A stretch of DNA of 64,000 nt. Origin: Escherichia coli. GTDB taxonomy: Bacteria > Pseudomonadota > Gammaproteobacteria > Enterobacterales > Enterobacteriaceae. Numbering within the stretch: the stretch's first letter is position 1; the number at the start of each line of letters is the position of its first letter. Shown here in pieces: positions 6,356 through 64,000 of this stretch. The notes beneath the pieces were generated by a model that ran no database searches, had not been told where the DNA came from, and was given only the letters and a program-made list of their open reading frames with translations. The position numbers and the translations under genes are program-made. The stretch lies in NCBI GenBank assembly GCA_023061495.1, contig GCA_023061495.1_3643.1; one strand, written 5' to 3'.

Positions 6356-6744
6356 TGAAAAATATTTGGGATATTGATATCTTTGAAGCCTCCAAGCTTG
6401 ACGGTGCTGATGGAGTGATTATGGTGTCTGATGGCAAGGCAACACTAACTTCCGGAGATATCATCTATGCCTTGGACGAGCTGGCGCTTCTGAAGTCTAC
6501 CGGTAACACTCTAGAGGAGCGTCTTCAAGGCTTCGCCTTCAAAGAAGGCACAAATACCGCCATGATGTGCACCACACGGACAGTTCAGGTGGGTAACGGT
6601 GTCTATATGATTATTGCTGTGTGTCCTAAATTCAGCAACGTCAACAAAGATGATGCTGACGCGGTAAACGATGTGGTTGTTCTCTTCGTGGGTGACGCTA
6701 TGGCAGATCTGATGAATGCAGGAGAAGCAGCAAATGAAGACTGA
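6355..6744 (+). CDS. Hypothetical protein
   Basis: ATGA overlap with upstream stop; ORF track. Confidence 0.5.
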   Translation: MKNIWDIDIFEASKLDGADGVIMVSDGKATLTSGDIIYALDELALLKSTGNTLEERLQGFAFKEGTNTAMMCTTRTVQVGNGVYMIIAVCPKFSNVNKDDADAVNDVVVLFVGDAMADLMNAGEAANED

Positions 6745-7036
6745 AAACATCACCCCAGCAGGGTTCTTAAAAGTATACCGTGAACTGCTATATACTACAG
6801 AGGACAGTGTTCTGGAGTATCCAGAATATCTTTTGCTGTATAAGTATCTACAGGAGGCTGGTGAAAATCTGCCAGTTAGTGCAGAAGGCGGTCCGAACTG
6901 GGTATACAGCGCATGGAGAAAGGTTGACATTCTCCCAGATCCAGGTAAAGATATGGTAGTTTGGCAGCTTATCAACAACATCGGGATTCCAATCTTCGAT
7001 GAAGCTGTTAAAATCTATTTTGAACTTGACGATTAA
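6734..7036 (+). CDS. Hypothetical protein
   Basis: ATG 6734 after GGAGAAG; overlaps upstream gene end by 11 nt. Confidence 0.45.
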   Translation: MKTENITPAGFLKVYRELLYTTEDSVLEYPEYLLLYKYLQEAGENLPVSAEGGPNWVYSAWRKVDILPDPGKDMVVWQLINNIGIPIFDEAVKIYFELDD

Positions 7037-7053
7037 TATCAGGAGACCTTAAG

Positions 7054-7299
7054 ATGACTGAAGTAGTTGCTCGCGTAGGACAGAAAGTACGTTGTGTTGA
7101 AGTAGGTTTTGGTGGCAAAGGGTGTCAAAACTTGACTCAAGGTAAGGAATACGCTGTTATCTCTGGTGGTGGCGACGAAAGTATTGTGTTCGAGGGCCAC
7201 ATCCTGGATGCTGAAAACTTTGAAATCTTTGACGACGATGGGGATCCGATCACCTGCCTGCTGGACGGGAATTGGGGAACTTTCGAAGTGATTGGCTAA
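7054..7299 (+). CDS. Hypothetical small protein (IFDDDGDPITC motif, likely same family as 4606-6355 genes)
   Basis: RBS AGGAGA then ATG; ORF track. Confidence 0.55.
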   Translation: MTEVVARVGQKVRCVEVGFGGKGCQNLTQGKEYAVISGGGDESIVFEGHILDAENFEIFDDDGDPITCLLDGNWGTFEVIG

Positions 7300-7382
7300 C
7301 AAATACCTATTGTAATTTACAGAAGGGGATGCTAAAATAGTGTCTCCTTCTATGTTGTTCAAATAAAATCGGAGATTCCATA

Positions 7383-10402: not shown

Positions 10403-10828
10403 ATGATCTATGAAATGCCAAAACTGATTCGCGACGATGCCCAAAACGCTCACACCATTATTATGGGCAAACGCATGGATATTATTTGTCATAGAGATTT
10501 CTGGGAAGGAAGTTACTTCACAGAGTATTTTGGTAAACTGGACAATGGTCTGCTGATCCAGTTCTACACCGATGCGGAAAACAACATTCACTGGGAGTTC
10601 GAAACTGAAGATATTCATAAACTTTTCACCTTCCTCGGTATTAAGGTTGAGGCCAAGTTTGAAGAAGGCGAGTGCGACGATTGTGGATTCTACGAGGTAA
10701 CAGATTTCTATCTCCCAAGTGGTGAGAACCTTTACTATGAAAGCCACTTCGGCAACTCAAATATGCCACAAGGTTGGGATGAGTTTTTTGAAATTGCGGA
10801 AGAGGAGCTGGCATACCGTGATTATTGA
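10403..10828 (+). CDS. Hypothetical protein
   Basis: RBS GGAGAA upstream of ATG; ORF track. Confidence 0.5.
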   Translation: MIYEMPKLIRDDAQNAHTIIMGKRMDIICHRDFWEGSYFTEYFGKLDNGLLIQFYTDAENNIHWEFETEDIHKLFTFLGIKVEAKFEEGECDDCGFYEVTDFYLPSGENLYYESHFGNSNMPQGWDEFFEIAEEELAYRDY

Positions 10829-11276
10829 TACTGTAGAGGGAGATTTAATCTCCCTTTTTAAGAGCGGTGCTGGTCACCTGATCCACGGTTGTAACTGCTT
10901 CCACACAATGGGCAAGGGGATAGCAAAACAGATTGCCCGTGAGTTCCCTCAAGCATTGGCAGCTGACAAAGAGACCAGACACGGTTGCCTAAGTAAACTG
11001 GGTGCGTTCTCCCGATGGGAGCACTTATCTCCGAGAGGTATTGTCTACGGAATCAATCTGTATACTCAGTTCTACCCAGGACCTAATGCTGAATATTTCT
11101 CAATCCTGAAAGGCTTTGAGCTAGTCAATGAGGTATTCAGTGGATCGACTTTACCATTCTACATCCCTAAGATCGGGTGCGGCATAGGCGGTTTGAAGTG
11201 GGAGCACGTAGAGGACGTTATTAACCTTGCCACTTTTGATATGAATATTATCGTGGTGGAGTACAAAAAGTGTTGA
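10818..11276 (+). CDS. Macro-domain protein (ADP-ribose binding/processing)
   Basis: GDLISLFKSGAGHLIHGCNCFHTMGKGIAKQI and IPKIGCGIGGL fit macro-domain signature blocks; GTG at 10818 overlaps upstream stop, start uncertain. Confidence 0.6.
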   Translation: MIIDTVEGDLISLFKSGAGHLIHGCNCFHTMGKGIAKQIAREFPQALAADKETRHGCLSKLGAFSRWEHLSPRGIVYGINLYTQFYPGPNAEYFSILKGFELVNEVFSGSTLPFYIPKIGCGIGGLKWEHVEDVINLATFDMNIIVVEYKKC

Positions 11277-13110: not shown

Positions 13111-13738
13111 AGACAGAAAAGTATGTGGTCGTGGAGTAAACGATTTAAAAGACAAAGTCCCAATGTACCAATCTGTTAATGGTAAGAGAGTACCAGAACC
13201 CCACTACGCTACATGGAAAGCATTATTCCAGAGGTGCTACGGCGATAACTCAAAGTACCATACAGGTTGTGAAGTTGTAGAAGATTGGTGGTTGTTCTCA
13301 GAATTCTGGAAATGGATGGATACACAAGAGTGGAAAAGAGACTCTAAGAAGTTCACTCTTGACAAAGATCTGAAAATCCCTGGAAACAGAATATACTCCC
13401 CAGAAACATGTATGTTTGTCCCACCACAAATAAACACCTTATTTGGCATAAGACAGGCAGCACGAGGGGATTTACCTTTGGGTGTGACACTTAGAAAAGA
13501 TGTAAACAAGTATCTCGTGCATTGTCATCGAGATGGAAAAATTGTTCATGGCGGTCATTTCGATGATCCACAGACAGCACACAAGGTGTGGCAAGAAATG
13601 AAACTTGAGGAGATGAAACTTCAGGCTATTAAAAACAAAGATGAGATTTGGCTGTTCGCCATTAAACGTGCAATAACTATCCTTGAGAATGATTTGAAAA
13701 ATAATAAGGAGACTATAACATTGGTGAAATTTATTTAA
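13094..13738 (+). CDS. AP2-domain protein with degenerate HNH-like N-terminal region (homing-endonuclease-derived)
   Basis: GVTLRKDVNKYLVHCHRDGKIVHGGHFDDPQTAHKVWQE fits AP2 DNA-binding domain; RBS AAAGGAGGG before ATG 13094. Confidence 0.55.
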   Translation: MGIPVKDRKVCGRGVNDLKDKVPMYQSVNGKRVPEPHYATWKALFQRCYGDNSKYHTGCEVVEDWWLFSEFWKWMDTQEWKRDSKKFTLDKDLKIPGNRIYSPETCMFVPPQINTLFGIRQAARGDLPLGVTLRKDVNKYLVHCHRDGKIVHGGHFDDPQTAHKVWQEMKLEEMKLQAIKNKDEIWLFAIKRAITILENDLKNNKETITLVKFI

Positions 13739-13839
13739 GATATTTATGGTAGTATTTATTTTAAAATTATAAAAATTTTAGGCGATGAGGGAAAATATGT
13801 AATGGATTTTCCCTTATTTATCAGATATTTGCAGATATT

Positions 13840-14250
13840 TGGAAATCCTTAGAAAATCAGAAAATGGATCGAAAACTAAAATGGATTTTTCAGAGTAGGC
13901 GCGACAAGCTGAATAACTCATCCTACCGTTTGCACCATATTCCAGGCCACCATTATAGATTTCCCACACATGCTCACATCCTTCTACTAGAACTTCCTCC
14001 ACTTACCCTTGACCTTTTATGGTAATAATCTAACCACTATCTTGAAGTTGCAGTGCAGCTTTCCAGGTACTCGATCTGTTTTTCGTTTCAAAGATTGAAT
14101 TTTCTGAAAATTTTTCTCGATAAATTTTTCGGTACTCGATCTGTTTTTCGTTTTCTGAATCAGATTTTCTGGGAATCGTTCCGGCGCTCGACCTGAAATT
14201 TTTGGGGACGAAATCGATTTTTCGTTTTCAGAAATGGATTTTTAAAATTT
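13840..14250. repeat. AT-rich non-coding region with iterons (23-bp perfect direct repeat at 14066-14088 and 14131-14153; several AAAATGGAT and TTTTTCGTTTTC units)
   Basis: Direct repeats visible in sequence; no convincing ORF. Confidence 0.55.
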
Positions 14251-14389
14251 CTATATGGGAATATTTTAGGAGTTATTATTTTATATAGAATTGTCACGGT
14301 AGGTAATTAGCATGCTAACTAAATTTATGAAATGCGAAAAGTTCTCATTTAGAATTTTGAGTGATAATCATTCTCGTTTGCAGAATAAC

Positions 14390-14566
14390 GGGCACCCCCG
14401 GTGATTGTCTCCCGGCCCCTACTGCCCCGGCTTGTTATTATAGTAACACACAGGACAAAGAAAGCAAGAAGTTTTTGCATAAATTTTTAGACGATAATGA
14501 TAATCGTTCTCATTTCATGCAGCGCCCATCCCCGGTGGTTGTCTCCCCCGTCACCGGTGCCTGCCG
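14390..14566 (+). repeat. Two copies of a GC-rich element (core CCGGTG(A/G)TTGTCTCCC) in an AT-rich intergenic region; third copy inverted at 22498-22540
   Basis: 14390-14431 and 14525-14566 share core and upstream GATAATC(A/G)TTCTC flank; potential stem CCGGTG/CACCGG. Confidence 0.45.
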
Positions 14567-14770
14567 TCCTTTCGATATGTATATTGTGCCACCTGGCGGG
14601 GCCGCTGTCAACACTTTTCAAAAAATTTTTCTAACCTGATGCGCTAACCGCTGCAACCTGGCGGGGCCAGCCTGGCAGGACCTAACTGACCAGGTAGGGG
14701 AGAATGAAGGCTTGCAAACCTGGTAGGCCTATGCTATAGGATAAGTAACAATTGAAGAGGAGGTACAAAA

Positions 14771-14947
14771 ATGAAAGGTAATATAATCCCCCTGGAAAAT
14801 GTAGCTATTAATGACGCTGAGGCTATCGCCCTGGTTGAAAAGGCTATGGCGGGAGCGTTGGAACATAAAGAAGAGTACGAAAAAATGATGGTTAACCTGG
14901 CAGGGGCGGCGGCTGGAGAGTTCTGCCCAAAAAATAATTTTAACTAA
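14771..14947 (+). CDS. Hypothetical small protein (58 aa, below track cutoff)
   Basis: RBS GAAGAGGAGG 8 nt before ATG 14771; stop TAA 14945-14947. Confidence 0.45.
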   Translation: MKGNIIPLENVAINDAEAIALVEKAMAGALEHKEEYEKMMVNLAGAAAGEFCPKNNFN

Positions 14948-20604: not shown

Positions 20605-20904
20605 ATGTTTATACCCGCCAATAATCTCTATTTCTTTGATGGTCAGATCGTAGACGGCGTGGAAGTTGAGATCACTGGATGTCAAGGCGGTCAGGTAATG
20701 ATCTTCCGCAATAGTGCCTTTAACGATCAATTTATTACAATGACTGTGGAAGTTAAAAAACTGGACGATAAGAAAACACTCATTGACTATTCCGTGAAAG
20801 ATTATCCAGACTACCACATGATCTATGGTGATTTGTGCATTGTTGACCGTGACAAGGTAGGCGGCATTGTGATCGCTATTGTGAACGATGTTTTCTCTAA
20901 ATAA
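20605..20904 (+). CDS. Hypothetical protein
   Basis: ATG 20605 with AGGAG 7 nt upstream; track ORF 20584-20904. Confidence 0.55.
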   Translation: MFIPANNLYFFDGQIVDGVEVEITGCQGGQVMIFRNSAFNDQFITMTVEVKKLDDKKTLIDYSVKDYPDYHMIYGDLCIVDRDKVGGIVIAIVNDVFSK

Positions 20905-21125
20905 TTCCGGCAAATGATGCAAAATAAGGCCCCTGGCGGGGCCTGCAGCGATATAATCACATAAAGACTATGCGGTTGCATGGCCTTTATTATTTTGGCG
21001 CTACAGCGGCCCCCAAGGCGCTTAAAAAATTTTTAAAGAAGTACTTGCATCAAGTCCGACAATATGGATAATAGGACGTATCAGGGGGCAACAAGCCCCA
21101 CCAACCACAAAGAGGATAAAAAATC

Positions 21126-21305
21126 ATGGCTATTATTGCAAAGACTGAGATCGTAGGCTTGGATTCTATTCTCCTCGCATATGAGGAAGCTATAGAAATG
21201 TATGTAGTTTCCTATGGTGAATATATCCGTGAATATAAATCTATTGATCTGGCTTTTGAATGTTATATTCGCCAGGTTAATAAAGCGTACGATGATTATC
21301 GTTAA
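21126..21305 (+). CDS. Hypothetical small protein (59 aa, below track cutoff)
   Basis: RBS AAAGAGGATAAAAAATC-ATG; promoter TTGCAT...ATAATA and hairpin GGGGGC-AACAA-GCCCC upstream. Confidence 0.45.
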   Translation: MAIIAKTEIVGLDSILLAYEEAIEMYVVSYGEYIREYKSIDLAFECYIRQVNKAYDDYR

Positions 21306-21395
21306 AACAGTTTGACAACAAACAACCATTTAACAAAGCATAATACATAAGGCGGTGGAATGGTCCGCCACCTGGAACAAGAAGAGGAAAACAAG

Positions 21396-21500
21396 ATGAA
21401 ACAGAAATTAATTGATGCGGTGATCCTGGTTATTGCCCTGGGTATTGGCCTGATTGCAACCATGGCTAATATGATCTTGTCTTCCAACGGTATCGGGTAA
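21396..21500 (+). CDS. Possible small membrane peptide (34 aa)
   Basis: RBS AAGAAGAGGAAAACAAG-ATG; hydrophobic AVILVIALGIGLIATMANMIL; hairpin GGCGGTGG...CCGCCACC upstream. Confidence 0.35.
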   Translation: MKQKLIDAVILVIALGIGLIATMANMILSSNGIG

Positions 21501-21510
21501 GGTGAAACAA

Positions 21511-21726
21511 ATGATCACGAACAAAACAGGCAAAACGGAATTTTTACGCGGCTTGCAAATAGGTAAGCCCGAGATCTGGCATTGCACTAAAACACCACGC
21601 GACGAAATGAAAGACTTTACCGCCACGCTGAAGCGGGTAAAGATATCCATTACGCAGAAAAAAGCCTTGATAGTGGTGGAAGGTGAGATCCCTCAAGCCG
21701 TTGTTATAGTTGAGCGTACAGCATAG
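21511..21726 (+). CDS. Hypothetical small protein
   Basis: ATG 21511 after AAGGTG; ORF track 21502-21726. Confidence 0.45.
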   Translation: MITNKTGKTEFLRGLQIGKPEIWHCTKTPRDEMKDFTATLKRVKISITQKKALIVVEGEIPQAVVIVERTA

Positions 21727-21815
21727 TTTAATCTATACCGTACGCCCCATTAACTAACAAAGCATAAACAGGCGGCGGTAACCGCCTTAAACGCAGCAGA
21801 AAGAGGATAGACAAC

Positions 21816-22100
21816 ATGAAAAAGATGATCGCAGTGGTTGCCCTGGTTATTGGACTTAATGCGCCTGTAATGGCCAAAGAGTTGGCAAAAGAGGTAGATC
21901 TAACTGATATCCATGCCGTCAATCAAATCGGTGTTACTTATCGGTTATGCCTTGCCGCAAAAACTTTCCAGGACGGCACAACAGAGTACTACGGATTCGA
22001 GGGCGTCCGGTGCGGTGAGCTTGCTCGCGACCTTAAAGAAGATCCAGACCTGGAGGATCTGCCGATAACCGTAAACGGGAAAACTTACGTGAACCGTTAA
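21816..22100 (+). CDS. Hypothetical secreted protein (signal peptide)
   Basis: RBS AGAAAGAGGATAGACAAC-ATG; N-terminus MKKMIAVVALVIGLNAPVMA; hairpin GGCGG-CGGTAA-CCGCC in leader. Confidence 0.55.
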   Translation: MKKMIAVVALVIGLNAPVMAKELAKEVDLTDIHAVNQIGVTYRLCLAAKTFQDGTTEYYGFEGVRCGELARDLKEDPDLEDLPITVNGKTYVNR

Positions 22101-22102
22101 CC

Positions 22103-22237
22103 ATGAGAAAGATAATTATTACCATGGGGATCATGGCGGCAATGTTGGCGATCTTTCCCTTTATGGTTAGGTATGTGCTGATTAATGTTGTCCTGGTAGT
22201 AAGCGATCTGGTGTTATATATTAACTCATTGTTTTAG
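22103..22237 (+). CDS. Possible small membrane peptide (44 aa)
   Basis: ATG 22103 overlapping upstream stop region; strongly hydrophobic; no strong RBS. Confidence 0.3.
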   Translation: MRKIIITMGIMAAMLAIFPFMVRYVLINVVLVVSDLVLYINSLF

Positions 22238-22245
22238 GCGCGATA

Positions 22246-22437
22246 ATGACAGCGGAAGAAGTTAAAAAAGTACTGGCGGTACTGCGTTATCATAATCATT
22301 GCAAGGTGAAGAATGATCCTGATTATCTTGATTCATCCCTTGAAGAGGATACACTACAAGCCATAAGCAACATGCAAGAATTGCTTAAGCGTATGACAGA
22401 GAAAAACCGACCGGACTATATAGGCGAAAAAGTATAA
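22246..22437 (+). CDS. Hypothetical small protein
   Basis: ORF track; terminator follows. Confidence 0.45.
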   Translation: MTAEEVKKVLAVLRYHNHCKVKNDPDYLDSSLEEDTLQAISNMQELLKRMTEKNRPDYIGEKV

Positions 22438-22451
22438 TCTTTATAAACCAT

Positions 22452-22483
22452 AAAACAGGGCTTGTAATGGTCCTGTTTTTTGT
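22452..22483 (+). terminator. Rho-independent terminator
   Basis: AACAGG-GCTTGTAATGGT-CCTGTT followed by TTTTTG. Confidence 0.5.
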
Positions 22484-22497
22484 TATACTTGTTTCAC

Positions 22498-22540
22498 GGG
22501 TGGCACCTGGCGACGGGGGGAGACAATCACCGGTGGTGCC
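22498..22540 (-). repeat. Inverted copy of the GC-rich CCGGTGATTGTCTCCC element
   Basis: Reverse complement reads GGCACCACCGGTGATTGTCTCCCCCCGTCGCCAGGTGCC, close to the 14525-14566 copy. Confidence 0.45.
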
Positions 22541-22566
22541 TGTTATATAAAAAACTATAAAAACCG

Positions 22567-22595
22567 TTGACATCTGCCAGGTGGTGGGGTAACAT
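22567..22595 (+). promoter_or_regulatory. Sigma70-like promoter (TTGACA-17-TAACAT) followed by leader hairpin GGGCA-AAAG-TGCCC
   Basis: Hexamers upstream of gene 22650. Confidence 0.5.
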
Positions 22596-22649
22596 TTATC
22601 TTGAAGGGGCAAAAGTGCCCACACAACAACCAGAAGAGAGGAAAACGCC

Positions 22650-22922
22650 GTGTCAAGCTGGATTAACCAAGAAGTCGAATCACGTTTTAATGCTATTTGG
22701 GATCTCATCGAAAAAGAGGACGGAACATCAAGCCCCTACCTTAATAATCTTGAATTCCATTTTGTGGAAGCGATGAACGCAGAACATGATCACGAAGGCG
22801 GCGCGGATGAGTTCGCTAAAGGGTATGGCTTCAACAATGCCAACGAAATGATCGAGGCGGTTGTACTCCAGGCTGAGGAAGATTATCAATTAAAAACACT
22901 TGAATTTTGCCGCCGTAAGTAA
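22650..22922 (+). CDS. Hypothetical acidic protein (GTG start)
   Basis: RBS AGAGAGGAAAACGCC-GTG; ORF track. Confidence 0.5.
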   Translation: MSSWINQEVESRFNAIWDLIEKEDGTSSPYLNNLEFHFVEAMNAEHDHEGGADEFAKGYGFNNANEMIEAVVLQAEEDYQLKTLEFCRRK

Positions 22923-42186: not shown

Positions 42187-43446
42187 TCAGCAACCACAAC
42201 TTCCGTAGTGCTTAACTCGCTCGATAACTTCCGCTTGCTTACCTTTATTGTAAGGACGGGAGTTAGGGCTGGAAAGGTATCCAGACACACGTCGAATTAC
42301 ACTGATCGTTCCCTCTTCATGGTTTCCACACCCTGGGCATACAAAGCCTTTAGCTGTTGCACTGAACTCACCAGAGAAACCGCACTTGAGACATTTATCT
42401 ACAGGTTGGTTAATACCAAAATACATAATGTGTTTATATCCGAAATCAACAAGAGCTTCCAAAGCATCTAAGTTGTTTTTCAGATTTGGTGTCTCTATGT
42501 ACCCAATGTTGCCACCAGAGGAGATCATAGCAAAACCTTCCTCATACTTCCACTTATCAAAAGGCGAGCTATTGATCCATACTGGCTGATGGAAACTGTT
42601 GGTGAGGTATTCATGCTCGTGCTTCAACACTTCTGGGTATTCACGATCCAGACAGGTTGCAGCTTTATAGCATAAACTCTCAGAAGGTGTGCCGTACAAG
42701 CTAAATGCTAGTCCACTTTCCTTCTTGTATCGCTCACAAGCATCTTTCATGTGCTGAAGGATTCCAAGAGCTAAAGCCTTGTCACCCTCTCTGCCCAAAA
42801 TCTGACAGGTTTCATACACACCAATATACCCAATACTGATGGAAGCGTACCCGTCATAGAAGAGTTTATCGATACTCTCTTCAGGATCCAGGCGAGCAAG
42901 AGCTCCTTCACACCACATGATAGGGTTCTGCCCTGCCTTTGTTCCTTTTAGACGGTTAACCCTTACAAGGTGAGCCTCGTATGCAAGATCCAAGTATTCG
43001 TCAAGAACTGCAAAGAAATCAATACCTTCCGTCTTAGCTTTTGCCGCAATCATTGGTAGGTTAAGGCTAACAACACCCAAGTTGAATCTGCCAAGGTATT
43101 TTTCATCACCCTCCGGTGTAACATATTTGCCAAGGAACGACCTACATCCCATGCTTGTTACTTTGCCGTCTGTTGAACCTGTCACTTTACGATTTAGCGG
43201 AACAGAAACAAAGTCAGGATAAATCCGCTCTGCAGAGCATTCTAGGGCTAATCGTTTCAAATCGTAGTTAGGATCCCCAGGGTTCATGTTGACACCCTCC
43301 TCTAAGAAGAACAGCACTTTAGGGAACACAGGTGTGATCCGTTCTTCACCAAGACCCATTTTGTGAACTTTCAAGTAGTTTTTGGTAATCATTCTACCAA
43401 AGACCGAAGTATCCAGCCCTAAACTTAATGTGATGAATGGAGTCTG
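42187..43446 (-). CDS. nrdD: Anaerobic ribonucleotide reductase NrdD, exon 2 (C-terminal part)
   Basis: YLGRFNLGVVSLNLP core block and C-terminal RVSGYLSS glycine-radical-like region; predicted to begin QTPFITL after the intron. Confidence 0.65.
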   Translation of the reverse strand, partial: QTPFITLSLGLDTSVFGRMITKNYLKVHKMGLGEERITPVFPKVLFFLEEGVNMNPGDPNYDLKRLALECSAERIYPDFVSVPLNRKVTGSTDGKVTSMGCRSFLGKYVTPEGDEKYLGRFNLGVVSLNLPMIAAKAKTEGIDFFAVLDEYLDLAYEAHLVRVNRLKGTKAGQNPIMWCEGALARLDPEESIDKLFYDGYASISIGYIGVYETCQILGREGDKALALGILQHMKDACERYKKESGLAFSLYGTPSESLCYKAATCLDREYPEVLKHEHEYLTNSFHQPVWINSSPFDKWKYEEGFAMISSGGNIGYIETPNLKNNLDALEALVDFGYKHIMYFGINQPVDKCLKCGFSGEFSATAKGFVCPGCGNHEEGTISVIRRVSGYLSSPNSRPYNKGKQAEVIERVKHYGSCGC

Positions 43447-44244
43447 CTGTCTCCACCCCTGTGTTTCCACAGGGCCAGACTATCTCTTACTCTACTTCAA
43501 TAAGATAATAACCCTTTATTGTGAGATGCTTACCTTCGGCATTTCCTTCGATAGCCCTGTGGACGTTTCCTACGTTCAAATTTAAGGCTTTTGCACAGGC
43601 ATAGAGTGAAGGATATTCACCCACCAAGGTTTTCCCTTGGTATGCCTGCACTTTCCTGTAGCACTTGCCTGGACAAAGCCCTGTTCGGAAAGCATGTCTC
43701 TTATTATCTTCCGGCAAAACCCACTCTAGGTTAGACGGATGATCATTCAATGTATTGCCATCTTTATGATTCACTTCCCAGTTTTCAGGGTCTTCTGGGA
43801 CATCTGGCAAACAATACAAGGCAACAACCCTTGAAGTTTGGATTCGAATCTTTTTACCTTTGTGGTTGAAAGAATACATATAGCGGCGTTTAACATGCTT
43901 GTTACCTTTTCCATAACCTCCCCACAATATGGGGTGCAGCATTCCACGTTTTCCGTATACGTTTCCCACCTCATCAATCACATAGTTTGATTCTTCACCA
44001 TTAAGAATGATCTTTTTCATAGAGTCTCTCCCTTTCGAAGTTAGTATTTCAACTAACCCCTACACTACTCGGTTCAGAAATGTTTGTCAAGCATCTCTGC
44101 CTTTCGTTAGTCGTTACAACCGTTCCAACTCCTGTAAGAACTAGTCACGGGATTGGCATAGCTTTCGCCTTAGCGTTCCCCGTTAGCCGGATTCACCGAC
44201 CCCTCTTATGAGGTTAGGAGAGTTTTACAACGGCCAGTTTGTTA
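43447..44244 (-). mobile_element. Group I intron in nrdD carrying an HNH endonuclease ORF
   Basis: Minus strand: exon ends AACGGU, intron has GCCGUU for P1; P-like AACGGGGAAC, Q-like CAATCCCGTG, R-like GACTAG, S-like AAGAGATAGTCT; intron ends ...GACAG; boundaries inferred. Confidence 0.6.
43487..44020 (-). CDS. HNH homing endonuclease (intron-encoded)
   Basis: VNHKDGNTLNDHPSNLEWV core; sits inside the nrdD intron. Confidence 0.75.
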   Translation of the reverse strand: MKKIILNGEESNYVIDEVGNVYGKRGMLHPILWGGYGKGNKHVKRRYMYSFNHKGKKIRIQTSRVVALYCLPDVPEDPENWEVNHKDGNTLNDHPSNLEWVLPEDNKRHAFRTGLCPGKCYRKVQAYQGKTLVGEYPSLYACAKALNLNVGNVHRAIEGNAEGKHLTIKGYYLIEVE

Positions 44245-45105
44245 ACCGTTGACAGAAGTTAACGTATTGATTTGGTAGAGCAAAGTTTGCATACTATCAA
44301 ACACGTCTTTATCTGTCATTTGCATTGCAACAGTCTCAGCATCTGGCAACCAATGTTCCTGACAAAATTTAAGGTTCTTCTCATAGGTTGCTTCAGCATA
44401 CTGTGCCAGATAATGATCAATATGGCTCATGGTCTGACCACCATATTGAGCACTAGCTACTGCACTAGAGATTTGGCTAAGGATTGTTGTTGCAACCCCT
44501 ATTGACTTCGGCTTACTGACATGGGCGTTACCAATGTTGAATCCGTTTTCCAGCATATCAGGATAATTTACCAAACAACAGTTTGTTAACGGACTGATCA
44601 GGTAGTCAAGATCATGCACATGGATGAAGCCTTTGTTGTGCTCTTCGGAGACACGGTCTGGCAGGATCTGTGTTGATGCAAGATGTTTGCTAAGGATGCC
44701 TGCAAGCAGGTCACGATGAGTATGAACATGATTAGTAGGCTTATTTGCGTTTTCTTTTGTAAATTCATCACAAGTGCGATCCAAGAAGCCGCTAATATCT
44801 GCAAGCAGTTTTCCACCTGCCTCTCTGTTATTATCTCTTGTCTGTCTATACTGGATGTATTCTCTGGCTGCACATTTTAAACCCATATCCATAAGAGCAT
44901 CTTCAACAAGGATATGGATATTTTTTACAGAGATCGTGCACTGGTCGGTTGGCAGATTGTTGGCAACAACTTCATTAACCGCGCAGGCAATCCGGTAAGC
45001 TTCTTCTTCAGTATGTCCAGACTCAAGTAAGGCGGACTCTGCCGCCTTGATCACCTTAATTCCGTTATAAAACTCTTCTCTACCGTCCCGTTTTACAACT
45101 TTCAC
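44245..45105 (-). CDS. nrdD: Anaerobic ribonucleotide reductase NrdD, exon 1 (N-terminal part with ATP cone)
   Basis: VVKRDGREEFYNGIKVIKA (ATP-cone-like) and FIHVHDLDY; stop codon lies immediately after predicted 5' splice site. Confidence 0.7.
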
Positions 45106-57688: not shown

Positions 57689-57978
57689 GACTTTTTAGTC
57701 TTCCTTGGGGAGCTTTTTGTTGATTTTTTCCTTTTGTGGTAGATTCCAAGTGCAGCGTTTTCTTGGGCGCACGTTTTAACAGTTCTCAGACAAGAACTTT
57801 CAGCTTTAGGCAGGTTTAACTCCCACCAACCAAGCCAGTAAAGTTCTGATTCAGACAACTGCTCAGATTCAGCCTTCCGATACAATGATTGCATACCCCT
57901 AATAATATCGTCCAGAGGTGTATCGAATACAAAAGCTGTCTTATCAAATTTCTCTTTTACAGGTTTCTTAGCCATCAA
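57685..57978 (-). CDS. Hypothetical basic protein
   Basis: ORF track. Confidence 0.45.
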   Translation of the reverse strand: MMAKKPVKEKFDKTAFVFDTPLDDIIRGMQSLYRKAESEQLSESELYWLGWWELNLPKAESSCLRTVKTCAQENAALGIYHKRKKSTKSSPRKTKKS

Positions 57979-58432
57979 GGTAACCCTCTATCCACGAAAA
58001 GTCGGTCTTCCATTCCGGAACTTTACTAAGCTCCCGCCACTCTGCAAAGCAGTCTCGGTAATAAGCTTCAGCCATGCCCTTAGTGATCTTATTTACCTTA
58101 GCCAACTGATTAACTGCCTGAGCATATTTCCCACGGATATTTGCTAACCCAGGATGCACCGATGTGTGACAATCTGGGCACAGGGCTATCAGTCCGACAA
58201 GCCGGATCACCCCCTCTTCGAAGGTGTAAAGTTCATGACACTCCACAGGGTGTTTGCTACCTTTGCCACCACACACCTCGCAAGTGTAGTTGGCTTCTCT
58301 GTAGCACTTCTTACGGATCTTATCCCACTCACTCTTCTTCACAGCGTTTCGGAGGTTATTATACCAAGCTGTTTCTGGGATCAGTTGCACAATAAGCCTG
58401 CGTTCAGACTTCATTAAACGTCCGTCTTCCAC
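57968..58432 (-). CDS. HNH-like zinc-finger nuclease-fold protein
   Basis: CEVCGG...ECHELY...LCPDCH. Confidence 0.5.
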   Translation of the reverse strand: MEDGRLMKSERRLIVQLIPETAWYNNLRNAVKKSEWDKIRKKCYREANYTCEVCGGKGSKHPVECHELYTFEEGVIRLVGLIALCPDCHTSVHPGLANIRGKYAQAVNQLAKVNKITKGMAEAYYRDCFAEWRELSKVPEWKTDFSWIEGYLDG

Positions 58433-58711: not shown

Positions 58712-59191
58712 TTAATCCAGTACTGTGCCTCCGGCTTTTCGGAAGACGTCCAGCATCTTCTCTATGTTTTCTACACGCTGATCATACAGTTTACCAGCCC
58801 CCGGTGGTGGTGGGAAACTTGCCCAACGGCTACGGCATTTATAGATAGCTGAACGGATCCTTCCTTCATAAATGTCATCAAGGGCTTTACATTCGCGGAT
58901 CAACTGTTTTGCTATGGCATCCTGACTTGCCGGACCAAAATCTCTTAAGCCAAGCTGCTTCATGTAATGCTTAGCGTATTTCTCCAGAATTTGGTATCTG
59001 CCAAATGCTGAAGAGGTAAGGCCCGGTCTTAATTTGACATAAATACCGGGATGCCTGCTGAGATCCTCTATGTATTTTCCACCAACAAGGATGTGGTACG
59101 AAGCATCTTCGCCACCATACCTGTCAGTACCTTCTGAGTGTGAAATCATCGAAAAAAATGCTCTCAATTGTACATTTTTATCTAGCTTCAT
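58712..59191 (-). CDS. Endolysin, lambda R-type lytic transglycosylase
   Basis: SEGTD...GRYQ...KQLGL...DF.P.SQDA...WAS.PGAG...AGGTV blocks collinear with lambda R as recalled. Confidence 0.75.
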   Translation of the reverse strand: MKLDKNVQLRAFFSMISHSEGTDRYGGEDASYHILVGGKYIEDLSRHPGIYVKLRPGLTSSAFGRYQILEKYAKHYMKQLGLRDFGPASQDAIAKQLIRECKALDDIYEGRIRSAIYKCRSRWASFPPPPGAGKLYDQRVENIEKMLDVFRKAGGTVLD

Positions 59192-59904
59192 TTAAACCTC
59201 CGATTAAACCACTCTTCCAACGAATCATCATGTTTTGCATATTCTGCGGATTTTCTGACGCATACAGCATCCCACCACTCCGTGTATTGCCCCAAATGAT
59301 ACCTTTTGCTGTTTTCAGCAATCTGAACTTGCCACTTGTCAGTATCGTGTCTCCATTTAACACCTGTACACCCAGATGTGTTATTAAGTTTTAGTATTTT
59401 GCCTTTATAAGTACCTGAAACTAGCTGTTTTCTTGCCTCTACAGCCTCATCTTTGGTCTTAAAGTACCCAGCAAACCTATCTCCTTCGAGGGTGTTATAT
59501 ACTGCATACCATAAACCACATTTCTTATAAACTCCTAAGTTACCGTGCGGGTTATTTTTCGGGAGTAAATTATTTCTTATACGGTCCTTGTTGTTATCAC
59601 TGTAGGTGCCCATAGAAAGATTTTCTATATTATCCTGGCCTTTTATATCATTTAAATGCCTGACAAGAAAGTTTTTTGTTAAAGAGTTATAAAACATGTC
59701 GTAAATAATTCTATGACGCTTCTTATCACCACCTTTATGAGAGTTGATTATAACATACCCTTGTGCATCATTACAACCAGCTTTTGTGCCAGCTTTTATG
59801 AAGAGTTGATTTTTACCTCGGCCTCTATAATGATTCTTTGTCCAAACTAGCTCCCCATCTTTGTACCAAAATGCAAAATTATCATTGAAGAAGAAATTAA
59901 TCAT
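59188..59904 (-). CDS. Free-standing HNH homing endonuclease with AP2 domain
   Basis: HNH-like DNIENLSMGTYSDNNKDRI; AP2-like GDRFAGYFKTKDEAVEARKQ. Confidence 0.65.
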   Translation of the reverse strand: MINFFFNDNFAFWYKDGELVWTKNHYRGRGKNQLFIKAGTKAGCNDAQGYVIINSHKGGDKKRHRIIYDMFYNSLTKNFLVRHLNDIKGQDNIENLSMGTYSDNNKDRIRNNLLPKNNPHGNLGVYKKCGLWYAVYNTLEGDRFAGYFKTKDEAVEARKQLVSGTYKGKILKLNNTSGCTGVKWRHDTDKWQVQIAENSKRYHLGQYTEWWDAVCVRKSAEYAKHDDSLEEWFNRRFK

Positions 59905-59925
59905 TTTTTTTTTANNNNNNNNNNN

Positions 59926-60011
59926 NNNNNNNNNNNNNNNNNNNNNNNNNNNNNNNNNNNNNNNNNNNNNNNNNNNNNNNNNNNNNNNNNNNNNNNNNNN
60001 NNNNNNNNNNN
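59926..60011. other. Assembly gap (run of N)
   Basis: 86 consecutive n characters. Confidence 0.95.
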
Positions 60012-60167: not shown

Positions 60168-61451
60168 TTATTCCAGCACCTCCCAAGTGTCTGGGTTAAC
60201 ATTTCGGACGCAGATACCGACAGGGAATTGGTAGTTGTTGTCTTCTGTCCTTGCTTGATATTTGAAGGTGACAAACTTGCCGATCATTTCCTGCATCCTG
60301 TCATAGCTACGCTCCTCGTGCGTACCTTTCATCTTCATTTTAACAACAATACCTTCCTTGTCAACACAGATAAGAACACCTTCATCATTCTTATCTTTCT
60401 CAACGTCAATAACTTTCACCTCAGCATCGTTGAACTTTTTCCATTTCAATGCTTCAGATGTTCGCTGACCGTATTCGTATTTACCACAGAAGTTACGCAT
60501 GATAGTACCTTCATACCCTTCGGACATGAATACACCGACAGATTCTTCGCAATGATCAACTGTGTACGCAAGCTCTGCGTCAACAACCTTGATATGGTCA
60601 AGCATCAGAGTGGTAATGGTATCTTCTACATCCATAAGATCCTTGCAGCGTCCAGATTCTGTTTCTGGATCCCACCACACCTTGTCACTAGGAATATCAA
60701 AAATGTGATACTCTAGATCGTAGCTACAGTACCCACCGTAACGCAAATCATCACGAACAGGCTCAACATCAACAGGAATATCTACCTTGTTGAAGTTTTT
60801 GTATGTTGATAAGCCTGCCTTAATTGCGGCATGACGTCGTTTTTTATCTGCCTCGTAGTCTTTATCGATCTCGGCCTGAATCTCTTCCTGTGTGCGCCAC
60901 CGTTTAGCAAGAGACACTATTTTCTGCAGAGGCAGACCATGAATATAGATCTCTCCGTCGAGCTGTTTAATCCCGGTGGTGAAGTGGAAAGAACGAAGTT
61001 GCTCCAGAAGCTTTCCTTGAATAGGGTAGGACTTATTACCACGGGAAATAAATTTAGGCTCACCATTTTGGAAAACAACAAGTAGACGAAGGCCATCTAA
61101 CTTACGCAAGATCCAGCAAGGTAATTTAAGTGCCTTTCCACGCTTCAGGTAGTCATGCACCAGCATGGGTAAAAGGTCAACACCCTGCTCGCAATCTTCC
61201 ATATTTTCAACATACCCCAGACGGACTTGTTTTTCCCACTTACTGATCGCTTCCAGCTCAGCCTGTTGCTCAGCTGTAGTTTCATTGGCACGACCCACAT
61301 TCTTAGGTGTGCAGATCGTCTCTTTGTATTGCAGTTTACCATCAAGCTTGCCAAACTCTACGATAACCTTATCACCATCCGTGAATACTTTCCACTGTTG
61401 GTAGCTGCCATCTTTGTTCAGTGCGTACAGTGTTGTTTTGATCTGATGCAT
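60168..61451 (-). CDS. ATP-dependent DNA ligase
   Basis: Motif I RKLDGLRL (KxDGxR), motif IV-like SEGYEGTIMR, motif V-like LKWKKF. Confidence 0.65.
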   Translation of the reverse strand: MHQIKTTLYALNKDGSYQQWKVFTDGDKVIVEFGKLDGKLQYKETICTPKNVGRANETTAEQQAELEAISKWEKQVRLGYVENMEDCEQGVDLLPMLVHDYLKRGKALKLPCWILRKLDGLRLLVVFQNGEPKFISRGNKSYPIQGKLLEQLRSFHFTTGIKQLDGEIYIHGLPLQKIVSLAKRWRTQEEIQAEIDKDYEADKKRRHAAIKAGLSTYKNFNKVDIPVDVEPVRDDLRYGGYCSYDLEYHIFDIPSDKVWWDPETESGRCKDLMDVEDTITTLMLDHIKVVDAELAYTVDHCEESVGVFMSEGYEGTIMRNFCGKYEYGQRTSEALKWKKFNDAEVKVIDVEKDKNDEGVLICVDKEGIVVKMKMKGTHEERSYDRMQEMIGKFVTFKYQARTEDNNYQFPVGICVRNVNPDTWEVLE

Positions 61452-61720
61452 TACTCAGCCTCTTCCTTAAAAATTTTAAACATCTCTTCTTTGCTCATTA
61501 CCAACCAGTCTCCCATAAAGTCAACTAACCAATCCCCTTGGTACAAGACCAGGTTACCAAACGGCTCGACAAGCTCACACATGCGAAGAATATCTCTGGT
61601 TCGAACAGGTGACGATGTAAACACACCTGTATCAATCCACCGTTGCAGATCAGATACTGATGAAGAGCTTCCGTCAAACTGGTGTGCTTCTACAGGTTTA
61701 GCAAGATTAAATAACGGCAT
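61451..61720 (-). CDS. Hypothetical protein
   Basis: ORF track. Confidence 0.45.
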   Translation of the reverse strand: MPLFNLAKPVEAHQFDGSSSSVSDLQRWIDTGVFTSSPVRTRDILRMCELVEPFGNLVLYQGDWLVDFMGDWLVMSKEEMFKIFKEEAE

Positions 61721-62015
61721 TGCAGTCCTCCTTCTCTAATAGGTCTTTTATCGGGTAAACAAGCAGGTGCGGATCGTAATAACTTATAGTCTTATTCTGC
61801 CACACTATGAACTTAATTACAACTAAATTTACCACATCTTTATCCCCATGTAGTCCAACACACAAATTTGTCCATATTTTGTGGTTGAATACTTTGCTGT
61901 CGATGTAGATCTTAGTGTCAAACTTATCCTCTATCCTACCTATAAGTTTAACCAATTCTTTCATCTGATCACCAAACACAGCATCGTTTTCAAGATCTCT
62001 GGAGTGCTTGTACAT
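61707..62015 (-). CDS. Hypothetical protein
   Basis: ORF track. Confidence 0.45.
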   Translation of the reverse strand: MYKHSRDLENDAVFGDQMKELVKLIGRIEDKFDTKIYIDSKVFNHKIWTNLCVGLHGDKDVVNLVVIKFIVWQNKTISYYDPHLLVYPIKDLLEKEDCNAVI

Positions 62016-62043: not shown

Positions 62044-62072
62044 GAAACAAGTAAAGCCGGGATCGCCCCGGC
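62044..62072 (-). terminator. Rho-independent terminator (minus strand)
   Basis: GCCGGG-GATCGC-CCCGGC followed by T-rich tract. Confidence 0.45.
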
Positions 62073-62079
62073 TATGTTA

Positions 62080-62793
62080 TTAAATATATTCTGTTACATC
62101 CTTGAAGCTTGAAGGCTTCATAATCTTACCTTTACTGTCGAGGAATATGATAACTTTATTTCCGTTGTAGAATTCTTCTTTAGCAACAAAACCTTCATAG
62201 CGACCATCAAAGCGTCGCTCAAGATCTTTAATCTCCAACTCGATGAGTTGTTCAGCAGGCATATCTGCACTGGCACCGTGTGAATACCGCAGATGGTTGA
62301 CGCGTGCAAACTTGCTGTCATTAGATTTTAGAACTTTCCGCATCATCCCGCACACATCACCGCGAAGCTGGAACAGCAAAGCTGTTGACAACTCTGCTAA
62401 GCGGTAAGCAGACGCTCTTTGCTTAGAGGTATTTTTAGCAGCGATCAGTGTATCATAAAATTCACCGATCTTAAACTTAAGACCTCGCGGATTATCAAAC
62501 AGGTTTGACCACTTTTCATGGTTATCGTTAACAAGATAGGCGGCATAACTTGTGACAACGTGAAGATCGCAGGCCTCTTTTAGGAGATGATCCCCACCAT
62601 CACCTTTCTCCAACTCTTCCAAAACTTCATTGAACTCTTCCTCAATGAAACTAAGTTGGAGTTCGAATGGTGTGTATGATTTTTTCACTTTAGCTGCTAC
62701 ACGGTTCCAATTTTCCACCCAGTTGGCAGACCAAAGGTAGTTTTCAGGTTGAGACAGTTTTTCCAGGTTGTCGATCAGTTTAGTATTCAGCAT
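62080..62793 (-). CDS. Hypothetical protein (possible MazG-like all-alpha NTP pyrophosphohydrolase)
   Basis: E-rich block LSFIEEEFNEVLEELEKGD; assignment tentative. Confidence 0.45.
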   Translation of the reverse strand: MLNTKLIDNLEKLSQPENYLWSANWVENWNRVAAKVKKSYTPFELQLSFIEEEFNEVLEELEKGDGGDHLLKEACDLHVVTSYAAYLVNDNHEKWSNLFDNPRGLKFKIGEFYDTLIAAKNTSKQRASAYRLAELSTALLFQLRGDVCGMMRKVLKSNDSKFARVNHLRYSHGASADMPAEQLIELEIKDLERRFDGRYEGFVAKEEFYNGNKVIIFLDSKGKIMKPSSFKDVTEYI

Positions 62794-62807: not shown

Positions 62808-63569
62808 TTACAGTTCCATAAAGTTTTCTACGATGTCAATAAATGTTTTATCAGAGAAAGCATCAACCGCCCCGTTAAACCAAACTGGGATGCCGCGATC
62901 CTCGTACTGGTAAATGTCACTACGTGAAATGCCATTCTCCCATAAATGCTGTGAGTCGTATTTGTTAACGATCAGTAGTTTAGTCCCATTATTACAGGCA
63001 GGGAATAGCTCCCAGTTAAAATTGATAACTGTGTTGGAACACCCTACAAGGATAACCATATCATTGCTCGTCAGAGAAGTCAACAGGTCATACATGTCTG
63101 TATATTTTGGAGCTACTTCTCCGAAGAACACTACATTAGGCTTGACCCAAGTATACTCGCTTGCATCTACCTCAGAGTATCCAATGTCTTTAATGACGTC
63201 ACTCCCTTCATCATCCTCATAGACTATTTCTGGCAAATATCCGTGGACATGTAAAATATCTTCATGTTTTACACCAGCACGCTCCAGCAAATCATCTACA
63301 TTGGTGGTCAGGTTGATCACACGACCAGACCAGCGGGAATACCACTCAGCGATCCGGAGATGTGCAAGGTTAGGCTCAACACTCCCCAAAGCTACACGAC
63401 GTGCATTGTAAAAGTCATGCACCTTATAGTAGTTCTTGGTAAAGGTGTGGATGTTACACACCTCATCGATGCTGAAATTCTCCCACATTGCAGTGCCACC
63501 AGATCGGAAAGTGGGGATACCAGATTCAGCGCTCAAACCAGCACCGGAGATAATGATCAGTCGTCGCAT
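62808..63569 (-). CDS. Sir2-family NAD-dependent protein (deacylase/ADP-ribosyltransferase-like)
   Basis: IIISGAGLSAESGIPTFRSGG matches the sirtuin NAD-binding signature; ATG start with GAGGA RBS. Confidence 0.65.
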   Translation of the reverse strand: MRRLIIISGAGLSAESGIPTFRSGGTAMWENFSIDEVCNIHTFTKNYYKVHDFYNARRVALGSVEPNLAHLRIAEWYSRWSGRVINLTTNVDDLLERAGVKHEDILHVHGYLPEIVYEDDEGSDVIKDIGYSEVDASEYTWVKPNVVFFGEVAPKYTDMYDLLTSLTSNDMVILVGCSNTVINFNWELFPACNNGTKLLIVNKYDSQHLWENGISRSDIYQYEDRGIPVWFNGAVDAFSDKTFIDIVENFMEL

Positions 63570-63577
63570 AAGTGTCC

Positions 63578-63928
63578 TCAGTAGATGTTTTGTTTAATCT
63601 CTATTCCAAACTTTTTAAACGAGTCAGCAGCAAGCATGAATTTACGAGCCGCTGATGGGTTAGAAGTATGCACGAAAATCTTCACGTTGTCAACTACAGG
63701 AGGCTTACCAAATACAAATTTTTCCTCCAGCATGGATAGGCAATCGTACCCTTCAAATACCTCTCCGAGATCGTTGTCCATGTGCCACTCAGAAACGCGC
63801 CTGTAGAGCTTTCCCTTATCGTTAATAAAATCCATAAACTCGGAGGAATTCTTTAGCCAAAGAGCATCTGGGAGCCCATAATTTGACGGATCTCTCAAGT
63901 CATCCAGCCACACAATCAACTTCTTCAT
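63578..63928 (-). CDS. Hypothetical protein
   Basis: ATG start with GAGGA RBS; ORF track. Confidence 0.5.
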   Translation of the reverse strand: MKKLIVWLDDLRDPSNYGLPDALWLKNSSEFMDFINDKGKLYRRVSEWHMDNDLGEVFEGYDCLSMLEEKFVFGKPPVVDNVKIFVHTSNPSAARKFMLAADSFKKFGIEIKQNIY

Positions 63929-64000
63929 TGCATATAGTCCTCGTTGTAGAAATAGCAGTCAAGTATCTCACGGCGTTCCTGTTCCAGGAGGCAATTCCAC

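Follow-up and report, generated by a model that had tools for sequence, protein, structure and literature searches.

A zinc-less phage sirtuin encoded within a predicted RNA-repair cluster of rV5-like coliphages

A stretch of 64,000 nucleotides deposited as Escherichia coli DNA (assembly GCA_023061495.1, contig GCA_023061495.1_3643.1; hereafter the window) carries near its end a real, intact, phage-encoded gene of the Sir2 (sirtuin) family. Its product is apparently active; the residues for binding of nicotinamide adenine dinucleotide (NAD) and for catalysis are all intact, and it appears to be a catalytically competent NAD+-dependent enzyme of the CobB/SIRT5 (class III) lineage. The gene belongs to a compact run of minus-strand genes, whose features are the following.

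62808-63569, minus strand: sirtuin gene, class III (CobB/SIRT5-like); 253 amino acids, ATG start, uninterrupted open reading frame (ORF).
63578-63928, minus strand: cREC (cyclic-phosphate processing receiver) protein, 116 amino acids; Pfam PF20274 cREC_REC, 53.3 bits (cut-off 27); phrog_1479.
63925-64000, minus strand: 3' end of a T4 Rnl1-type RNA ligase gene that runs off the window; named from the annotation of Escherichia phage HMD-6, with coordinates inferred from the fixed offset to that genome.
62080-62793, minus strand: candidate MazG-like nucleotide pyrophosphohydrolase, 237 amino acids, with its own GGAGG Shine-Dalgarno sequence; partial match to phrog_671 (E=5.4e-22), and so annotated in phages HMD-6 and FV3.
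62055-62073, minus strand: hairpin resembling an intrinsic terminator; 8 bp stem with 6 G-C pairs and a T-rich tail, 7 nt past the MazG-like stop codon, identical at the same place in HMD-6.
61707-62015 and 61451-61720, minus strand: two small conserved genes (102 and 89 amino acids; phrog_7684 and phrog_14585, of unknown function) between the hairpin and the DNA ligase gene, which travel with the cluster in related myoviruses.
60168-61451, minus strand: ATP-dependent DNA ligase, 427 amino acids; Pfam DNA_ligase_A_M and DNA_ligase_OB_2; 1.4 kb downstream of the sirtuin gene.

The family assignment is based on concordant matches. The protein matches the Pfam SIR2 profile (PF02146) at 94.9 bits (cut-off 24, E=7.2e-27) over model positions 1-178 of 180, and PHROG 2162, "Sir2 (NAD-dependent deacetylase)", with E=2.7e-109. 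The closest solved structures by sequence are those of E. coli CobB (1s5p, E=1e-21) and SIRT5. An AlphaFold2 model built from 34 homologues (alignment A2) has a predicted local distance difference test score (pLDDT) of 90 and a predicted template modelling score (pTM) of 0.88, and consists of a Rossmann domain and a small domain; when compared by Foldseek with the PDB, its top match is CobB (template modelling score, TM, 0.76/0.85), together with Af1-Sir2 and SIRT5, with E values down to 4e-19 and TM of 0.73-0.85. The original prediction, made from the nucleotide sequence, had proposed a phage Sir2-family protein with an intact N-terminal GAGxSAESGIPTFR signature and had named a profile search and a check of catalytic residues among its tests. 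All of this is borne out: residues 9-22 read GAGLSAESGIPTFR, the SIR2 match lies above its cut-off, H109, N90 and D92 are present and invariant, and the phage origin is confirmed by a nucleotide identity of 98% between the region and two Vequintavirus phages of Escherichia, HMD-6 and FV3, which are rV5-like myoviruses of some 137 kb.

Read along the minus strand, the genes follow one another as Rnl1-type RNA ligase, cREC, Sir2 and MazG-like, with gaps of 8 bp (to cREC) and 14 bp (to MazG-like) on the two sides of Sir2. Each gene of this run is preceded by a Shine-Dalgarno sequence; that of the sirtuin gene, GAGGA, lies 5 nt upstream of the start codon and overlaps the TGA stop of cREC. In HMD-6, where cREC occupies 13579-13929 and the ligase (311 amino acids) 13926-14861, the ligase heads the co-directional run, and a polynucleotide kinase (Pnk, 136 amino acids) and a phosphoesterase (184 amino acids) are divergently encoded upstream of it. 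A T4-like RNA ligase, cREC, a nucleotide kinase, a MazG-family pyrophosphatase and a calcineurin-like phosphoesterase are all found within 1.7 kb in HMD-6, and in the window as far as the window extends. By its gene content the sirtuin cluster is predicted to be an RNA end-healing and sealing cluster. The inspected parts of FV3 and HMD-6 have no annotated KptA or 2H enzyme; no profile search was aimed at these. The MazG-like protein has no Pfam match and no PDB sequence match, and its assignment rests on the partial PHROG match. The hairpin at 62055-62073 probably marks where transcription of the Rnl1-cREC-Sir2-MazG-like unit stops; the region as a whole has no more terminator-like sites than expected from shuffled sequence, and the call rests on the position of the hairpin and the quality of its stem.

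Substrate cleft and placement among sirtuins

Conservation along the sirtuin was read from alignments of 121, 38, 34 (A2) and 150 homologues. The key sirtuin residues are G9-A10-G11, S16, F21-R22, C38, Y54/R57, T89-N90-V91-D92, H109, F148-F149-G150-E151, G176-x-S178 and N202. Among them, G9-A10-G11, S16, F21-R22, N90, D92, H109, E151, G176 and S178 align to CobB and are invariant or nearly so in the alignments of 38-150 homologues. H109, in an LHVHG motif that aligns to IHMHG of CobB, is the catalytic histidine and, like N90 and D92 of the NxD motif, is invariant across homologues. The anion-binding dyad of class III is found in FYNARR, identical to the corresponding CobB segment: Y54 is invariant; so is R57 in A2, and almost so in alignment A1. 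We take these two residues to correspond to Y102 and R105 of SIRT5, and position 38, an invariant Cys that replaces Ala76 of CobB, presumably corresponds to Ala86 of SIRT5. Residues V146, F148, F149, V181 and I182, which by homology line the hydrophobic acyl-lysine tunnel, are also invariant or nearly so.

Three changes distinguish the cleft. The segment of about 36 residues between H109 and FGE, where CobB has the four cysteines of the zinc ribbon, has none in the window sirtuin and 0-1 in close homologues, and the former ribbon is still modelled by AlphaFold2 as beta strands. The Gln of the QNxD motif is replaced by Thr89, which is invariant in the 34 sequences of A2 and present in at least 90% of A1. 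The canonical G[TS]S..V[YF]P loop has become GCSNxVINFNWELFP, a form strongly kept in the core phage clade. Among 150 representatives the QNxD position holds Gln in 91 and Thr in 47, and it varies together with the cysteines: 78 sequences combine Gln with at least three Cys, 36 combine Thr with fewer than three, and 24 are mixed, one trait being canonical and the other derived. When 1.84 billion representatives were searched exhaustively, 72 proteins reached E<=1e-30 to the sirtuin; the nearest representatives are mostly zinc-less with Thr, the more distant ones mostly have four Cys and Gln. Because the derived traits concentrate in the nearest representatives and the canonical ones in the distant ones, the window sirtuin is placed by sequence in a derived subclade within a larger family of zinc-containing sirtuins. 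The loss of the zinc cysteines, the change of Gln to Thr89 and that of VYP to INF(NWELFP), all conserved in the clade, argue for a substrate different from that of the zinc-containing relatives.

The protein is moreover strongly acidic, with an isoelectric point (pI) of 4.68 and a net charge of about -17; the pI within the clade is 4.6-6.05. The former zinc-ribbon segment alone has 10 acidic and 2 basic residues.

With CobB and SIRT5 (1s5p, 6rxj, 3riy) the window sirtuin has in common the fold (TM 0.73-0.85), the GAGxS, FR, NxD, FGE, GxS and Y-x-x-R motifs and the catalytic His, at about 26% identity in structure-based alignments. It differs from them in having no zinc cysteines instead of four, Thr for the QNxD Gln, Cys38 for Ala76 of CobB, INFNWELFP for the VYP loop, and a distinct stretch of 50 residues at the C-terminus. 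Its assignment as a CobB orthologue was considered and rejected: NCBIfam gives 121.4 bits for the subfamily model, whose cut-off is 243, and 103 bits for prot_deacyl_CobB, where 320 would be needed, and among the CobB equivalogs that were checked (NF040867, NF001755 and others) the protein stays below every curated cut-off, although CobB-type deacylases are its nearest relatives.

An assignment as a defence-type SIR2 NADase was rejected as well. The best PADLOC match, PDC-S65, has E=0.0078 over 33 residues only, and SIR2_2 (PF13289) scores 12.6 bits, under its cut-off of 24.5. The defence NADases (ThsA, DSR1/2, SIR2-HerA, SIR2-pAgo) belong to the same superfamily and likewise consume NAD+; unlike them, the window sirtuin is without a sensor or partner domain, and its top fold matches are deacylases. 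No HerA, TIR, pAgo or SLOG gene was seen among the sirtuin neighbourhoods examined.

A further comparison is offered by the Sir2/CobB homologue of KVP40-type vibriophages, which is about 45% identical over residues 3-202 and likewise without zinc ligands (PMC5107563). It differs in keeping the Pro of the remodelled loop, as I-N-P, in its C-terminus, and in its neighbours, none of which is recognisable as a gene for RNA repair. Skliros et al. 2016 (PMC5107563) described the loss of zinc in this protein and the transcription of its gene during infection, and they proposed that it deacetylates acetyl-CoA synthetase.

Neighbourhoods and distribution across phages

The sirtuin is widespread among phages. 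At the nucleotide level, 121 phage records match the sirtuin region at >=80% identity, and most of them label the gene "Sir2-like" or "NAD-dependent deacetylase"; the name Sir2 already stands in more than 100 records. By tblastn, homologues are present in 1,008 phage records, at identities of 46-58% in T5-like siphoviruses, about 50-57% in Mydo/SSE121-like and phapecocta-like myoviruses, about 45% in KVP40-like vibriophages and about 38-42% in jumbo phages. Some 18-25 records of "Campylobacter phage" (e.g. A140, MG065674) share an identity of at least 80-90% with rV5-like phages of E. coli across Sir2, cREC and Rnl1, which suggests mislabelled hosts or contaminating coliphages.

Gene context was compared in 80 viral loci with sirtuin relatives, whose ORFs were searched with single sequences and then with iterated hidden Markov models (HMMs) seeded from the proteins of the window phage and from Pfam-verified neighbours. 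Single-sequence phmmer searches missed the contexts of T5-like and jumbo phages, which were revealed by the Pfam scans and the iterated HMMs. A lineage is here a cluster of Sir2 sequences at 70% identity, and a neighbour was counted within 3 kb. So defined, 12 of the 27 Sir2 lineages have a neighbour that processes RNA ends.

In rV5-like phages and in several groups of myoviruses of 140-150 kb, Sir2 is found 0-3 kb, on the same strand, from genes for Pnk, Rnl1, phosphoesterase, DNA ligase and MazG-like protein, and mostly from cREC too. This linkage outlasts rearrangement: the order in Mydo/SSE121-like phages is Rnl1-cREC-Pnk-Sir2-DNA ligase, where the DNA ligase directly abuts Sir2, and elsewhere it is phosphoesterase-Rnl1-Pnk...Sir2-DNA ligase. 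About 31 loci are from T5-like phages; their Sir2 precedes HAD_SAK_2 (74.7 bits; "HAD domain in Swiss Army Knife RNA repair proteins") by 0-442 bp. In five jumbo phage loci Sir2 is followed by a Nudt16-like Nudix gene and then by cREC (80.5 bits), and their sirtuins are only about 40% identical to that of the window. In T5-like loci two tandem DUF7415 genes (116 and 109 bits) invariably follow Sir2 and HAD_SAK_2 (for example at 6494-7324 of locus L002, and in about 31 others), and they could be part of this module.

The remaining 31 loci (18 lineages), those of phapecocta-like and KVP40-like phages among them, have adjoining genes without an RNA-repair domain, such as those for nitroreductase, YkuD, SprT-like protein, NrdD, endonuclease VII and DNA ligase, and a Pfam batch scan of the neighbours in 14 unassigned lineages did not find RNA-repair domains. 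The genes upstream of Sir2 in phapecocta-like and KVP40-like phages match only PHROGs of unknown function; phapecoctaviruses have cREC at the genome level, not adjoining Sir2. One Sir2 lineage has a nicotinamide phosphoribosyltransferase (NAMPT; NAMPT_N and NAPRTase domains) among its immediate neighbours, loci of the L065/L069 type being the likely carriers; such an enzyme would recycle the nicotinamide that the sirtuin releases.

At the level of whole genomes the overlap between Sir2 and Rnl1-type ligases, which occur in 984 phage records, is partial. Salmonella phages account for 289 Sir2 records and 18 Rnl1 records, most T5-like carriers of the sirtuin appear to be without an Rnl1-type ligase, and many Rnl1-bearing phages of Pseudomonas and Streptomyces and T4-like phages give few or no matches to the sirtuin.

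These contexts agree with those of Iyer, Burroughs, Anantharaman and Aravind (2022, Viruses 14:1977, PMC9503650, section 3.7.3), who described three types of phage sirtuin neighbourhood. Their type 2, with Escherichia phage V5 and Proteus phage Mydo as prototypes, concerns the same gene family, the same phage group and the same neighbours as the window, which is a member of it with nothing essential different; type 1 (Nudix and cREC, jumbo phages) and type 3 (HAD "Swiss-army-knife", T5-like) are reproduced here. What is added is the limit of 12 in 27 lineages, the acidity of the clade, the change of Gln to Thr, the remodelling of the VYP loop and the partial overlap of Rnl1 and Sir2.

A second gene of the window may be relevant to the metabolism of ADP-ribose.

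10818-11276, plus strand: macro-domain gene; Pfam Macro, 28.3 bits (cut-off 22).

Its product is nearest to Poa1p-type ADP-ribose-1''-phosphate phosphatases and to TARG1/OARD1, and several database records label it merely "phosphatase". The gene is about 52 kb from the sirtuin gene, in a different transcription block. The macro gene has homologues in 2,723 phage records. T4-like phages, where it lies beside vs, are among these but not among the Sir2 matches, and of 85 loci a single one carries a macro homologue within 10 kb of its sirtuin gene. A dedicated Sir2-macro pair of the SirTM type, adjacent or fused, was rejected on this distance and on the non-matching distributions. Poa1p-type and TARG1 enzymes dispose of the by-products that Tpt1 or sirtuin reactions leave; because the macro protein resembles them, a weak link in trans may exist, in which it would clear ADP-ribose by-products.

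Possible roles of the phage sirtuin

We tentatively propose that the sirtuin is functionally part of phage RNA (tRNA) repair and supplies its NAD+-consuming step, because the gene is tightly embedded in the operon, the linkage is kept through rearrangement, Sir2 has independent partners in phages of unrelated groups (HAD_SAK_2 in T5-like phages, Nudix and cREC in jumbo phages), the cleft is derived, and the reactions of Tpt1 and sirtuins run in parallel. In both mechanisms an oxygen nucleophile attacks C1'' of NAD+, nicotinamide is lost, and an attack by the 2''-OH yields a 1'',2''-cyclic species. This role is favoured only narrowly over that of a general protein deacylase. Iyer et al. 2022 (PMC9503650) have proposed that the sirtuin is analogous to KptA/Tpt1 and removes the 2'-phosphate of RNA, its neighbours opening cyclic phosphates or processing ADPr>P, the cyclic phosphate of ADP-ribose. 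Following their scheme, a host anticodon nuclease or toxin nuclease would leave a 2',3'-cyclic phosphate, which would be opened by cREC or the phosphoesterase; Pnk would phosphorylate the 5' end and Rnl1 would seal the break. The residual 2'-phosphate would then attack C1'' of NAD+ in the sirtuin with release of nicotinamide, and the 2''-OH, activated by His109, would attack the phosphate, so that ADP-ribose-1'',2''-cyclic phosphate is released as in the Tpt1/KptA reaction. The anion-binding dyad Y54/R57 could hold the phosphate. Clearance of the cyclic product would fall to cREC, to the MazG-like protein (in other phages to Nudix or HAD) and possibly to the Poa1p-like macro protein. That the sirtuin performs this specific RNA 2'-phosphotransferase chemistry is a more doubtful proposition than its participation in repair.

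The proposed reaction, in which NAD+ and RNA 2'-phosphate give nicotinamide and ADP-ribose-1'',2''-cyclic phosphate, is that of Tpt1/KptA, and these enzymes are likewise linked to RNA ligases, cyclic-phosphate esterases, Nudix and macro domains (PMC9503650). Their fold is unrelated, however, being an ADP-ribosyltransferase (ART) fold as opposed to the Rossmann fold of sirtuins, and the likeness is one of functional analogy only. In fact, neither a Tpt1 profile nor the ART fold is present in the window protein, for which the Pfam scan returns SIR2 alone and the modelled fold is that of a sirtuin. Tpt1 enzymes act through an Arg-His-Arg-Arg tetrad; the window sirtuin, by contrast, is acidic.

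Several points weigh against a role in RNA repair. We know of no sirtuin that acts on RNA, and the acidity of the protein, of its clade and of the former zinc-ribbon segment is a poor fit for binding an RNA backbone. The near-invariant residues of the predicted acyl-lysine tunnel are as expected of a lysine deacylase. RNA-repair neighbours are missing from 15 of the 27 Sir2 lineages, and the partial genomic overlap with Rnl1 and the T5-like carriers that appear to do without it point the same way. The classical T4 Pnkp/Rnl1 pathway leaves no 2'-phosphate, and E. coli already has KptA. Early and middle genes of phages for nucleic-acid functions cluster anyway, so that adjacency counts for less than in bacteria, and for cREC, too, the function is no more than a prediction. 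Finally, cREC, HAD, Nudix, MazG-like and macro proteins could equally clear the O-acyl-ADP-ribose made by a deacylase, and only the linkage to Rnl1 and Pnk is specific to RNA repair.

The strongest alternative, itself no better than tentative, is a CobB-like NAD+-dependent lysine deacylase (deacetylase and/or desuccinylase/demalonylase) that acts on host or phage proteins during infection, with acetyl-CoA synthetase, aminoacyl-tRNA synthetases, RNA polymerase and nucleic-acid enzymes as candidate targets. The proximity to RNA-repair genes would then reflect the general clustering of early and middle genes, or the clearance of O-acyl-ADP-ribose by neighbouring Nudix, HAD and macro enzymes. The nearest relatives in sequence and fold, E. 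coli CobB, Af1-Sir2 and SIRT5, are consistent with such an enzyme, as are the invariance of the catalytic residues, of the Y54/R57 dyad and of the tunnel residues on the FGE strand, and an acidic surface, which suits basic protein substrates. More than half of the lineages are without an RNA-repair neighbour, one of them with NAMPT next door, T5-like carriers appear to be without the Rnl1-type ligase, and the KVP40-type homologue is transcribed in mid-infection and has been modelled as a deacetylase (PMC5107563). The protein falls far below the scores required of a CobB orthologue, however; it has lost the four zinc ligands and the QNxD Gln, and its peptide-binding VYP loop is remodelled. Deacylation also leaves unexplained the tight operon position between cREC and MazG-like and the independent pairing of Sir2 with cREC in jumbo phages.

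Two further readings were weighed. The original prediction had seen in the sirtuin and macro genes a manipulation of NAD and ADP-ribose metabolism during infection, with reference to the NAD-consuming Sir2 effectors of bacterial defence; in this form the sirtuin would be a NADase, or a protein or DNA ADP-ribosyltransferase, that works with the macro protein or counters NAD-based defence. Both genes are present and look functional, the macro protein, found where it had been predicted, resembles ADP-ribose-1''-phosphate phosphatases and TARG1, and some sirtuins (SirTM, SIRT4/6) ADP-ribosylate proteins, while some defence SIR2 proteins are NADases (PMC9503650). The framing as a defence NADase is not supported, since the PADLOC and PF13289 matches are not significant, the sirtuin has no similarity to defence SIR2 families or SIR2_2, and the CobB/SIRT5 deacylases match it best in sequence and in fold. 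Nor is the pairing, since the genes are 52 kb apart in different transcription blocks, their distributions (2,723 and 1,008 records) show no specific co-occurrence, the SirTM arrangement needs an adjacency that is absent here, and the real context of the sirtuin is the RNA-repair cluster. Destruction of NAD+ would moreover be self-defeating for a lytic phage, and we consider this reading improbable. The sirtuin might otherwise mend acylated tRNA, stripping from aminoacyl-tRNA the N-acetyl group placed by GNAT-type toxins (TacT/AtaT/ItaT class) and restoring translation in abortive infection. The N-acyl amide would be chemically like acyl-lysine, and a remodelled cleft and a place among tRNA-repair genes would suit such a substrate; however, the activity is without precedent, an acidic sirtuin is a poor match for tRNA, and no GNAT- or Pth-related genes were seen in the neighbourhoods examined, and this is the least probable of the explanations. 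That the zinc-less phage sirtuin acts directly on RNA in either way, through removal of 2'-phosphate as a non-orthologous replacement of Tpt1/KptA or through deacylation of N-acyl-aminoacyl-tRNA, is on balance unlikely. If true, no sirtuin before it would have had a nucleic acid as its substrate, and phages would have a new NAD+-dependent form of counter-defence against RNA-targeting toxins.

The gene, its zinc-less state and its RNA-repair context are already in databases and in the literature, and as the find of a genome scan it is ordinary. The remaining interest is the biochemistry of the clade. This is large, with about 1,000 phage genomes (T5-like, rV5-like, phapecocta-like, KVP40-like and jumbo phages). 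It has lost its zinc ribbon, a conserved NAD-contact residue is changed in it, and it stands repeatedly beside enzymes that process RNA ends. To our knowledge, every characterised sirtuin acts on proteins or simply destroys NAD+. If the phage sirtuin removes 2'-phosphates from RNA, this would be a new class of sirtuin substrate and would complete the phage repair of tRNA against host anticodon nucleases. Should it be a deacylase, the phage would have in it a tool that rewrites the host acylome. Full-text literature searches did not find a biochemical or genetic test of any phage sirtuin, and the NARP3 paper mentions defence sirtuins only.

Other features of the window

Just downstream of the DNA ligase gene, two ORFs resembling homing endonucleases of the HNH/AP2 type (57968-58432 and 59188-59904, minus strand; both "HNH endonuclease" in HMD-6) flank a lysozyme gene at 58712-59191. 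Between the second of them and the DNA ligase ORF there is a run of 96 N (59916-60011) with poly-T flanks, which is a masked or unsequenced stretch and not biology, and which creates spurious "X" ORFs.

The gene for the anaerobic ribonucleotide reductase NrdD (42187-45105, minus strand) is split into ORFs of 287 amino acids (44242-45105) and 427 amino acids (42187-43470), with an HNH homing-endonuclease ORF (43487-44020) between them, as in FV3 (FV3_00106-00108); this may be an insertion of the homing-endonuclease or intron type in an essential gene. Beyond the window, at 20786-22651 of HMD-6, the large subunit of the terminase is annotated as two coding sequences separated by a gap of about 350 bp, perhaps a further case of an interrupted gene among these phages.

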